A stretch of 64,000 nt of DNA from Octopus vulgaris (taxonomy: Eukaryota): NCBI GenBank assembly GCA_951406725.2, contig OX597819.1, forward strand, positions 106,888,001-106,952,000, in the 5' to 3' direction. Below, in pieces: positions 46,690-50,380 of this stretch. A program made the translations under genes and the position numbers. Every line of letters begins with the position of its first letter. The first letter of the stretch is position 1. Below the pieces are notes generated by a model, which was given only the letters and a program-made list of their open reading frames with translations, ran no database searches and was not told the origin of the DNA.

Positions 46690-47112
46690 GGCGCAGGAGT
46701 GGCTGTGTGGTAAGTCGCTTGCTAACCAACCATATGGTTCAGGGTTCAGGGTTCAGTGCCACTGCTTGGCATCTTGGGCAAGTGCCTTCTGCTATAGCCC
46801 TGGACCGACCAATGCCTTGTGAGTGGATTTGGTAGACGGAAACTGAAAGAAGCCTGTCGTATACATGTATATATATATATATCTATGTGTGTTTGTTTGT
46901 GTGTCTGTGTTTGTCCACCTAGCATTGCTTAACAACCGATGCTGGTGTGTTTATGTCCCCGTCACTTAGCGCTTCGGCAAAAGAGACCTATAGAATAAGT
47001 ACTGGGCTTACAAAGAATAAGTCCCGGGGTCGATTTGCTCGACTAAAGGCGGTGCTCCAGCATGGCCGCAGTCAAAATGACTGAAACAAGTAAAAGAGTA
47101 AAAGAGTAAAAG
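46690..47112 (+). mobile_element. tRNA-derived SINE family B
   Basis: GGCGCAGGAGTGGCTGTGTGG A-box, GGGTTCAG, CTTGGGCAAGTGCCTTC, GGATTTGGTAGACGGAAACTGAAAGAAGCC, and GACTGAAACAAGTAAAAGAGTAAAAGAG tail. Confidence 0.9.
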
Positions 47113-48638: not shown

Positions 48639-48759
48639 TTGACGATGTCAACTGGTATTTTACTGCTTAGTGCTCTCGATCTTACTTGCCGTGGTTGATT
48701 CTGTGAGAGCGGAAAGCAATCTGTTTCAGTGGTCACAAAGGTTCTGTTTGCCACAAATT

Positions 48760-49395
48760 ATAAACTTTGGTACTTGGATGCTAACTATCGTGGAAGAATC
48801 TCACACACAAGTATTAATCTGAAAATCTTAGTTGTCCCCAGCAGAACATTTTTTTTAACCTGCCCTGTCCACATGTCAATTCTAACTTCTTCATCGTATT
48901 TCTGGAACTTGGTTGAGAGTGCTCCCAATCCCCTGAAAATTTCTCCAATAACAGTTACCCTCCTCAGTGCCCATAATTCTTGTAATTTCTTCTTTTAGTG
49001 GTTGCTATTTTCCCATCTTTTGCAGCTCTTTGTCACCTATCCGTGCATCCCAGGGTATGGCAATATCTATGATCTTGGTTTCCCTTTTTCTTCTATCTGC
49101 CACGACAATCTCTGGTCGCCAAGGAATAAATTAGGGAACCACAGTCGATTTTCAAATTCCAAAGGATCTTATTGTCATTGTTCTCAGTGACGCTCTCTGG
49201 TTCCTGTTTGTACTATTTCGGTACACTGCCCAGACAGTACTTTTCACATAGTCTCCAGTGAACAAACTTACCAACACTATCGTATCTCAATTCCTAGTGC
49301 TTTTGGGCCACGATATGTAAGATTGTTTTGGTTTTTGCTGCTACACATCCCACAAAGGGACGATTCACTGCACTTATCTATTTGGAGTTTGATGC
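48760..49395 (-). mobile_element. 3' end of an R4/Dong-like RLE non-LTR retrotransposon
   Basis: Minus strand reads C.MC.., RYDSVGKFVHWRLCEKY, EPESVTENNDNKILWN, RPEIVVADRRKRETKIIDIAIPWDARI, VLLGTTKI (zinc knuckle plus restriction-like endonuclease). Confidence 0.85.
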
Positions 49396-49404
49396 TATTA
49401 TATA

Positions 49405-49581
49405 ATTTACGTTATTTACATTTGACGGATATATGTCCTCATCTTGTTTGTTGTTAAAAACTTTTCGACTGATATACCCTCCATGCTTCATCAGTTGTCT
49501 TGAGGAAATTTCGAACCAGGTTTCTCATTCTTAAGGTATTTGCCGATGTTGTTGTTGTTGTCGTTGTTGATGTTGTTGTTG

Positions 49582-49671
<90 letters not shown>

Positions 49672-49805
49672 TGGTCACTGCTTGGAATCGAACTCGGAAT
49701 CTTGGGGTTAATATCCCGCGCCCTTAACCATTACGCCATATGGCGTCGTGGTTAAGCGCGCGGGCTACTAACCTCAAGATTCCGAGTTCGATTCCAGGCA
49801 GATAC

Positions 49806-49863
<58 letters not shown>

Positions 49864-50050
49864 GCAACAACATCGAAAACTACTTCTAGAATGAGAACCC
49901 TGGTTCGAAATTTTCCCCAAGACACCTGATGAAGGCTGGAGGGTATATCAGCCGAAACGTTGTGTTAACAAACAAGATGAGAACAAATATCCGTCAAATG
50001 TAAATAATGTAAATAATGCACATAATTCCTCATAACCATAAATATAGAAC
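49405..50050. mobile_element. Head-to-head inverted pair of a tRNA-headed element with a hammerhead-bearing PLE-like tail
   Basis: Palindrome centred at 49739/49740 (GCCATATGGC). Each arm has a tRNA-like head (A-box TGGCGTCGTGG, B-box GAGTTCGATTCC), then (AAT)n, a unique body, a hammerhead and a TGTAAATAA tail. Confidence 0.85.
49921..49966 (+). ncRNA. Minimal type I hammerhead motif (decayed mirror copy on minus strand ~49453-49500)
   Basis: GACAC-CTGATGA-A-GGCTG-gagggtatat-CAGCC-GAAA-CG-T-T-GTGTT. Confidence 0.8.
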
Positions 50051-50380
50051 TTTATTGATTTTTGTAGGCGTTGCATATCAATGCCTCAGTATATCCTTTC
50101 AGATCACTATTTCTTAGCCAACTTCAAATGTTGCTCTTGTCTTTTCCTTCAATTTCTCTGGGGTATTGCCCATGCATTGTATTCATTTTCCAATTGTTTA
50201 TTCTGCGACAATTATTGGTACAACTCCTACCTTTTTCATCGACCACAACTGCTTAACTTCCCAAGCAAACCTGTCATATCTCTCGACTTTTCTTCCTTCC
50301 TTATACACACATACATGTATGCATACATACATACATACATACATACATACATACATACATACATACATACATGCATGCAT

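Follow-up and report, generated by a model that had tools for sequence, protein, structure and literature searches.

The window analysed here, a 64,000-nucleotide stretch of DNA from Octopus vulgaris, contains two copies of a short repeat that combines a tRNA-like promoter with a hammerhead ribozyme, arranged head to head. A sequence-only reading had proposed a non-autonomous SINE or a Pol III retrozyme that parasitises the reverse transcriptase (RT) of a Penelope-like element (PLE), and the locus raises the question of what this unit is, which polymerase would read it, and how the palindrome came about.

The palindrome is indeed centred at 49739/40, with 0 nt separating its arms, and at the junction both arms share CATATG, a self-complementary microhomology on neither strand in particular (49737-49742, head positions 4-9). 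Both arms read outward in the order head, (AAT/AAC)n linker, body, hammerhead and tail. The right arm, on the plus strand, consists of a head derived from tRNA-Arg(ACG) (49737-49806, head positions 4-68, with an A box at 49741-49751 and a B box at 49784-49795), the linker (49807-49869), the body (49870-49920), a minimal type I hammerhead with an intact core (49921-49966), and a long 3' end made of an AT-rich terminal-repeat end and an optional PLE 'tail' of ~30 nt, with which the PLE main body begins (49967-50051). Its body includes the ATG at 49891 that starts an 835-aa PLE frame in tandem copies, and a slipped TTTT at 49911 that represents private decay. The left arm, on the minus strand, consists of a tRNA-derived head (49671-49742, positions 4-72, A box 49738-49728, B box 49695-49684), the linker (49550-49670), and a body with a decayed hammerhead and a short 3' end devoid of the optional tail (49405-49549), so that a long 3' end is paired with a short one. 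Mutations are more numerous in the left arm, as had been noted, with matches to the family majority of 64/69 (left) vs 62/65 (right) in the head and 132/148 vs 161/171 in the tail.

The pair had been said to abut or interrupt an R4-like element, of which the interruption holds and mere abutting does not: a single R4/Dong-like LINE frame on the minus strand, outside the element, is split by it into an upstream half (50052-50200) and a downstream half carrying the zinc knuckle and the restriction-like endonuclease (48640-49400, ending at an (ATT)n run). The split falls between two motifs that in loci L050 and L224 are separated by about ten residues. No target duplication is recognisable at the window pair. 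Just beyond the interrupted fragment lies a separate short piece of an R4-like endonuclease C-terminus (50200-50300), and at 46690-46715 of the window another abundant repeat begins with an A-box-like motif; it is present in several loci and is probably a different tRNA-type SINE family.

The head had been thought reminiscent of tRNA-Asn. Comparison of the head majority with tRNA genes from this genome (G000; seven amino-acid types sampled) points elsewhere, tRNA-Arg(ACG) matching at 52/75 letters and Arg(TCG) at 49, followed by Asn at 46/75 with a lower score. The A and B boxes are intact and at tRNA spacing and positions, and the tRNA stems are decayed and pair poorly. Rfam reported neither a tRNA nor a hammerhead, either in the window at the gathering threshold or, with E<=1, in a further four copies, and ARAGORN called no tRNA, so that both identifications rest on the position of motifs and on alignment to real tRNAs; minimum free energy folds of the head and of the ribozyme were no improvement over shuffles. 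Elsewhere in the genome, motif matches to tRNA-Arg(ACG) (~19) and tRNA-Asn (~20) form clusters (C2:211887000-211908000 and C20:52848000-52928000), and many of those on C2 are spaced ~206 nt.

The right-arm hammerhead has the architecture first described, and in addition an extra A after CUGAUGA and a palindromic AACGUU. Stem I (49921-25/49962-66) encloses the core (49926-32), the extra A (49933), stem II (49934-38/49949-53) and the palindromic stem III (49956-61), with a predicted cut after 49961. Every mark given for minimal PLE hammerheads, namely the core boxes, an extra base 9/10.1, G10.1-C11.1, a palindromic 15.2-16.2 and a short helix I (PMC4209133), is present in this arm, whereas the left copy (at about 49499-49455) has broken stems II and III; helix II is 5 bp here, compared with the 7-8 bp that the same source gives for Schistosoma. 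The predicted active folds are not the lowest-energy ones (-20.7 kcal/mol for the dimer hammerhead vs -29.2 kcal/mol for the best inactive dimer), and an in-frame ATG lies upstream of the predicted cut. The hammerhead is inherited PLE equipment, and its cleavage is unnecessary to explain the pair. In the related PLE proteins P0011 and P0077, N-terminal peptides also read through the hammerhead, in P0011 in the same frame as in the octopus family.

The unit belongs to a large family. The 34-nt hammerhead core has 1,690 exact copies in the genome and 0 in a reversed control, indicating that the pattern is not due to chance, and a 37-nt stretch of the head has 654 (control 0). Given that exact matches made up 10/184 (ribozyme) and 3/129 (head) of unselected copies, these counts scale to ~31,000 and ~28,000 copies, respectively, with wide intervals. 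Head and hammerhead tail were linked, as the sequence-only reading supposed, at 26/30 head-selected and 20/30 hammerhead-selected loci (the first 30 matches on C1 for each), which rules out chance nesting; the unlinked cases inspected were 5'-truncated or had another element inside the linker. An inverted piece lies on the 5' side of 19/30 head-selected and 22/30 ribozyme-selected loci, and an inverted head on that of 6/30 and 8/30. Copies are mostly single or inverted, head-to-tail neighbours being rare (L043 and deletion derivatives). The (AAT)n linker is a frequent landing site for R4/Dong-like LINE ends and for a recurring non-coding repeat of ~600 nt, in the same orientation, and insertions there separate head from tail in L005, L014, L018, L020, L023, L026, L050, L078 and L086. 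The unit occurs under seven organism labels, and contigs from organisms E and F bridge the junction between ORF and head (L227:2826-2980).

The proposal of a separate non-autonomous SINE did not survive extension of these copies: the whole unit, head included, is the terminal repeat (pLTR) of an autonomous PLE. At 4/30 ribozyme-selected loci, common upstream DNA translates as a PLE thumb and endonuclease. A 30-mer across the ORF-end junction has 550 exact copies (~1,700 estimated in total), and by BLAST the head lies directly 3' of the ORF end at 28/30 junction-selected loci, with partial heads in the remaining 2 (L094/L095 and L096/L097 being counted as separate loci). Full-length copies were recovered by walking upstream; in these the tail continues directly into the ORF start, the order ORF end, head, tail, ORF start is seen in L168, L173 and L176, and a pLTR stands on both sides of the ORF, as a partial tandem, in L122, L168, L173, L176 and L180. 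An autonomous PLE sharing the tail had been predicted and does exist, but it shares the head as well. The expectation that the tail is a PLE rather than a LINE end was also correct, and a LINE-derived tail is ruled out, since the tail runs into the PLE ORF start. Two near-identical large inverted PLE structures (the pairs L094/L095 and L096/L097, C1, 8.94 and 9.05 Mb), ~105 kb apart, are probably a segmental duplicate, and L024 resembles another PLE end.

The majority of 17 long copies has an open frame of 784 aa, or 835 aa counted from the ATG upstream of the ribozyme. It matches RVT_1 (E=5.8e-8), and its endonuclease region is 29% identical to an Anolis PLE protein (E=6e-22), with a YKG motif instead of YIG, as in the relatives P0002 and P0011; no Pfam profile for the GIY-YIG domain matched the frame. 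The protein has 799 relatives, the named ones from beetles, coral, urchin and Anolis, with pairwise identities of 33-48% over the best segments. Judging from pairwise identity and domain order, we class the element as an autonomous Poseidon-type PLE with a single ORF that encodes an RT and, at its C-terminus, a GIY-YIG endonuclease. All 30 loci fetched from this genome with the PLE protein belonged to the headed octopus family, and a second, headless PLE family, sought as a control, was not among them.

As had been anticipated, the copies also bear the insertion signature of PLEs; it consists of long and short ends and short target duplications in divergent pairs. Such pairs numbered 84, of which 58 combine a long with a short 3' end; flank repeats of at least 9 nt, mostly 11-14, occur in 28, vs 1.4 in shuffles. 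The 3' ends cluster at tail positions ~150 and 175-181, that is, 60 and 85-90 nt downstream of the ribozyme cut. Bearing on whether a pair stems from one template by fold-back or from two, arms share 39 private variants, of ~330 each, vs 18 +/- 4 in shuffles, and 13/18 head pairs agree at the sole polymorphic site. Inverted arrangements with long and short ends are known for PLEs (PMC8557442, PMC8969392, PMC3846280), and the palindrome is an ordinary PLE insertion scar made of head-to-head solo pLTRs. The back-to-back promoters noted earlier are real as a layout and not as a design, being a by-product of the usual inverted insertion. For the Poseidon element of the anole, two internal RT start sites have been described, together with a protein that nicks both strands and extends them; the template must include the first 172 nt of the ORF, and ribozyme cleavage is dispensable in vitro (PMC11167929). 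The two clusters of 3' ends in the octopus family resemble these two start sites as given there.

At the other extremity, the start lies at head positions 1-9 in 26 of 30 head-selected copies, 2 others start inside the head and 2 run into the ORF; for the 20 heads in the hammerhead-selected set the corresponding numbers are 9, 8 and 3. The 30 copies that enter the ORF run on for 39 to >1,549 nt (median ~400), so that the loss per 16 nt amounts to a few per cent in the ORF vs 75-90% at the head start. The commonest palindromic junction, a fold-back at -6 (224 exact copies, control 0), is the one expected if a cDNA whose end lies 6 nt upstream of the head snaps back, and this is also where the template jumps of L163, L165 and L166 arrive. 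This position is a purine after a pyrimidine, 13 nt upstream of the A box, as is expected for a Pol III start. The pile-up of 5' ends points to an RNA 5' end at the head.

A Pol III transcript of the full element would have to be free of internal terminators, and TTTT runs are scarce in it. The majority body contains 0 TTTT in 2,383 nt, vs 29 runs of A, the head and tail majorities contain none, and individual long copies (n=17) have 0-2 each. The full-length copy L122 has 0 TTTT in ~2,620 nt, and six occur within the 180 nt of flank that follow. In synonymous shuffles, the absence had P=0.037 (own codon use) or 0.006 (composition); GGGG is likewise absent from the body, with 3.6 expected. The observed/expected ratio of TTTT was 0.26 in 30 decayed copies, along the whole body, vs 1.37 in 80 related PLE stretches from metagenomes, these controls being at most 50% identical and from other hosts, to the exclusion of the nearest relatives (53-65% identity). 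Control stretches matched in composition (T content) also had no TTTT in 2/55 cases, and near-intact relatives in 0/28 (P=0.010 in an overdispersed model). Four other RT families in this genome, one representative each, have 25 TTTT runs in 6.8 kb (3.7 per kb), and TTTT is the first T run after 21/34 of its tRNA genes, many of them from one cluster. The signal is modest, suggestive of a link with Pol III reading and not proof, as it concerns one lineage and the test was chosen after L122 had been seen.

The best counter-example to the terminator argument is a related PLE ORF that has no TTTT over 1.9 kb, with a T-rich pLTR and no tRNA head (L251:3001-4906). Of the 80 related metagenome PLEs, 19 bear a hammerhead, and none of these 19 had A and B boxes within 400 nt upstream of it. 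An unrelated case of the same layout occurs on another metagenome contig, where two head-to-head tRNA-like sequences detected by ARAGORN (L307:1710-1880) lie ~400 nt after a PLE ORF fragment that has TTTT runs and no visible hammerhead.

Three RNA-seq runs from organism B yielded 6,434, 5,291 and 4,802 reads on a tandem copy, distributed symmetrically over both strands, of which 78-79% continue into unlike sequence. No start or end peak, cut-site peak or intron joint was seen in the three runs, and no circular joint bounded by the cut site was among the joints listed from them. The reads look as if they represent read-through copies only, the library apparently being unstranded or consisting mainly of read-through. 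We considered a short intron within the tail, by which the ribozyme ATG would be linked to the ORF, and rejected it: no joint supported it, at low depth, and the unspliced frame matches P0011.

The head is likely to be a Pol III promoter, as had been suggested from its boxes, and the indirect evidence for this lies in the 5' ends at the head start and in the lack of TTTT. With a promoter head, most copies starting there and no terminator, the element is likely to be read, possibly in full, by Pol III. We consider it probable, from the sequences of these copies, that the pair represents two solo pLTRs of an autonomous Poseidon-type PLE, reverse-transcribed from an RNA that Pol III would start at the tRNA-Arg-derived head. 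Transcription would begin 13 nt ahead of the A box, at a point ~6 nt before the tRNA-like sequence, and, the unit having no terminator, Pol III could read on into the ORF. By analogy with the in vitro behaviour of anole Poseidon, the PLE protein would nick both target strands in AT-rich DNA, and at the ORF start it would initiate reverse transcription internally on the RNA, from two sites separated by ~30 nt. As this is only ~250 nt from the RNA 5' end, the cDNA would run off at the head and leave a solo pLTR, and two cDNAs, or a cDNA and its snap-back copy, may then join through the self-complementary microhomology at the head to form the palindrome. Solo copies, from which the ORF start required by the protein is missing, are predicted dead ends.

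A bolder version, which we advance tentatively and rate somewhat below an even chance, is that an autonomous PLE has switched entirely to Pol III, having captured a tRNA-Arg promoter and purged TTTT from a 2.6-kb unit with an 835-codon frame, and that its uncapped RNA is translated, perhaps with help from the hammerhead. The internal start of PLE reverse transcription would free such an element from the need for a defined RNA 3' end. Its weak step is translation, since Pol III RNA is uncapped. For viral hammerheads, ribozyme-dependent and cap-independent initiation has been reported (PMC13725137), but in the octopus PLE the in-frame ATG is upstream of the cut.

The translation problem disappears if two polymerases are involved, Pol III making short templates from the pLTR to the ORF start and a capped Pol II RNA making the protein, with the TTTT gap due to chance or to another cause. 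This alternative, which shares its first steps with the preferred reading, is possible, if rather doubtful. It agrees with the published view on Pol III mini-elements, there the TRIMp3, whose autonomous partners would have to rely on Pol II and have no long repeat sequence in common with them (PMC10886601), and the P values for the TTTT gap are only 0.01-0.04. Nevertheless, nothing in the unit would stop Pol III ahead of the flank, and TTTT is depleted along the entire body in 30 copies.

The solo copies might instead be an independent PLE-dependent SINE, that is, Pol III masters borrowing the PLE protein. Heads outnumber ORF-head junctions ~16 to 1 (~28,000 vs ~1,700, with wide intervals), and solo copies are slightly younger, with a median head identity of 0.931 vs 0.923 (P=0.05) and tail identity of 0.951 vs 0.942 (P=0.03) and better kept B-box CpGs (P=0.004-0.006, uncorrected for 75 tests). 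There are also internally deleted derivatives in 4 loci (L163-L166), consisting of a pLTR, the first 235-263 nt of the body and a new pLTR, two of which (L163 and L165) have one common breakpoint; these may represent a genuine non-autonomous master of TRIM-like type, carrying two ribozymes in tandem. In contrast, no diagnostic non-CpG allele separates solo from ORF-linked copies (46 vs 78 heads, 36 vs 70 tails; 75 head and 175 tail columns, corrected). Moreover, solo copies end within ~10 nt of the ORF-start tail, whereas anole Poseidon requires the initial 172 nt of its ORF (PMC11167929), and internal RT initiation on the autonomous RNA predicts an equal excess of solo copies. We consider a lineage of this kind unlikely. 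Like a SINE2, the unit begins with a tRNA-derived A/B-box head; its 3' end, however, is a PLE pLTR and ORF start instead of a LINE-borrowed end with an A-rich or repeat tail, and no non-autonomous lineage of its own was apparent in the 36-78 copies per class.

An explanation of comparably low probability holds that the head is a captured, promoter-dead fragment of a tRNA SINE, that Pol II transcribes the element from another pLTR promoter, and that RT stalls or snaps back at head hairpins. The Penelope of Drosophila uses an internal, LINE-like pLTR promoter (PMC2377424), in Adineta, palindromes have been described at the 5' ends of pLTRs (PMC3846280), and the RNA-seq data contain no head-anchored start. 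In the octopus family itself, fold-back occurs at an internal head hairpin, where a second pile of 5' ends (head positions 15-19; 14 of the 86 head copies listed end at 14-19) indicates that structure alone can stop or redirect RT. Yet only a 4-pair hairpin around 2 nt is present at the head start, and ~90% of arriving copies stop there, many of them joining flank or an inverted tail with no fold-back; the boxes are intact where the tRNA stems are not, and TTTT is depleted.

Finally, a tandem hammerhead retrozyme replicating through self-cleaved circular RNA is very improbable, even though a minimal hammerhead is present, the pLTR-short body-pLTR derivatives (L163) carry two tandem ribozymes and animal retrozymes are described as related to pLTRs (bioRxiv 10.64898/2026.07.22.740005), because the arms are inverted with their ribozymes on opposite strands, tandems are rare throughout the family, neither copy end falls at the cut site (the 3' ends being 60 and 85-90 nt downstream), and the ribozyme core is kept no better than the remainder (0.97 vs 0.96) and is intact in 41/163 copies.

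The element characterised here has much in common with described endonuclease-bearing (EN+) PLEs, namely PAc, an anole Poseidon (PMC11167929), and Adineta Pen2a (PMC3846280). As in the accounts of these, there is a frame of ~835 aa for RT and C-terminal GIY-YIG, a pLTR formed by a partial tandem, an inverted 5'-truncated copy, a 30-nt tail on one end only, a short target duplication, a hammerhead overlapping the ORF start, and AT-rich targets. The octopus family alone among them has a pLTR head with tRNA-derived A and B boxes, an (AAT)n linker, 5' ends at the head and a TTTT-free body; the PLE pLTR promoters described so far are TATA/Inr-like or LINE-like according to PMC3846280 and PMC2377424. 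A search of openly available full-text papers found no PLE with a tRNA-derived pLTR promoter.

Partial parallels exist in other systems. The TRIMp3 elements Cassandra, Helenus and Ajax likewise have a Pol III promoter derived from a small RNA in their terminal repeat and many solo repeats, but these are non-autonomous LTR elements of at most ~1.3 kb, whereas in the octopus the head is carried by the autonomous element itself (PMC10886601). Sm-alpha and Sj-alpha of Schistosoma similarly join a tRNA-related Pol III promoter and a hammerhead in a short repeat; as described in PMC6765202 and PMC2770079, they form tandem arrays with a canonical-type ribozyme and a tRNA-Gln-related promoter, and these accounts name no autonomous partner. 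In the octopus, in contrast, the ribozyme is of the minimal PLE type, the pairs are inverted and an ORF is physically linked to the unit. MRC1 of Chlamydomonas (PMC8557442) and the animal non-LTR retrozymes (bioRxiv 10.64898/2026.07.22.740005) are also short, share a PLE end and are moved by PLE enzymes; the retrozymes are tandem, and a tRNA head or Pol III promoter goes unmentioned in the available text of both sources, the terms 'tRNA', 'Pol III' and 'promoter' having 0 occurrences in a term search of the latter.

In its head, the unit resembles tRNA-derived SINEs (SINE2), including the octopus OK, OR1 and OR2, which likewise have a tRNA-Arg-type head with A and B boxes; the octopus unit differs from SINE2 in having no LINE-derived 3' end and no terminal A or repeat tail, its microsatellite being internal. 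OR1 and OR2 we take to be of tRNA-Arg origin. OR2 has been termed a CORE SINE (PMC4758252). Penelope families and numerous unclassified SINEs figure in the available text of an octopus repeat annotation, from which the word 'hammerhead' is absent (PMC13282606); the present family could have a catalogue entry or be included in that repeat library.

The transcription of PLEs and the origin of their pLTRs and inverted ends are open questions that the octopus family addresses, as thousands of its copies define one sharp RNA 5' end, which can be counted, and two 3' ends. The pattern of ends fits and extends the internal-initiation model derived from anole Poseidon. It also offers a route to SINE-like repeats that involves no LINE, and many of the sequences called 'tRNA SINE' in genomes of this kind may represent PLE ends. 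Reading of the whole ORF by Pol III, if it occurs, would contradict the expectation that autonomous retroelements must use Pol II; it would also provide a long Pol III mRNA of natural origin, and PLE hammerheads would gain a function. A Pol III-driven PLE of this kind would, if true, unite a LINE and a SINE in a single element and release SINE-like solo repeats by the tens of thousands.
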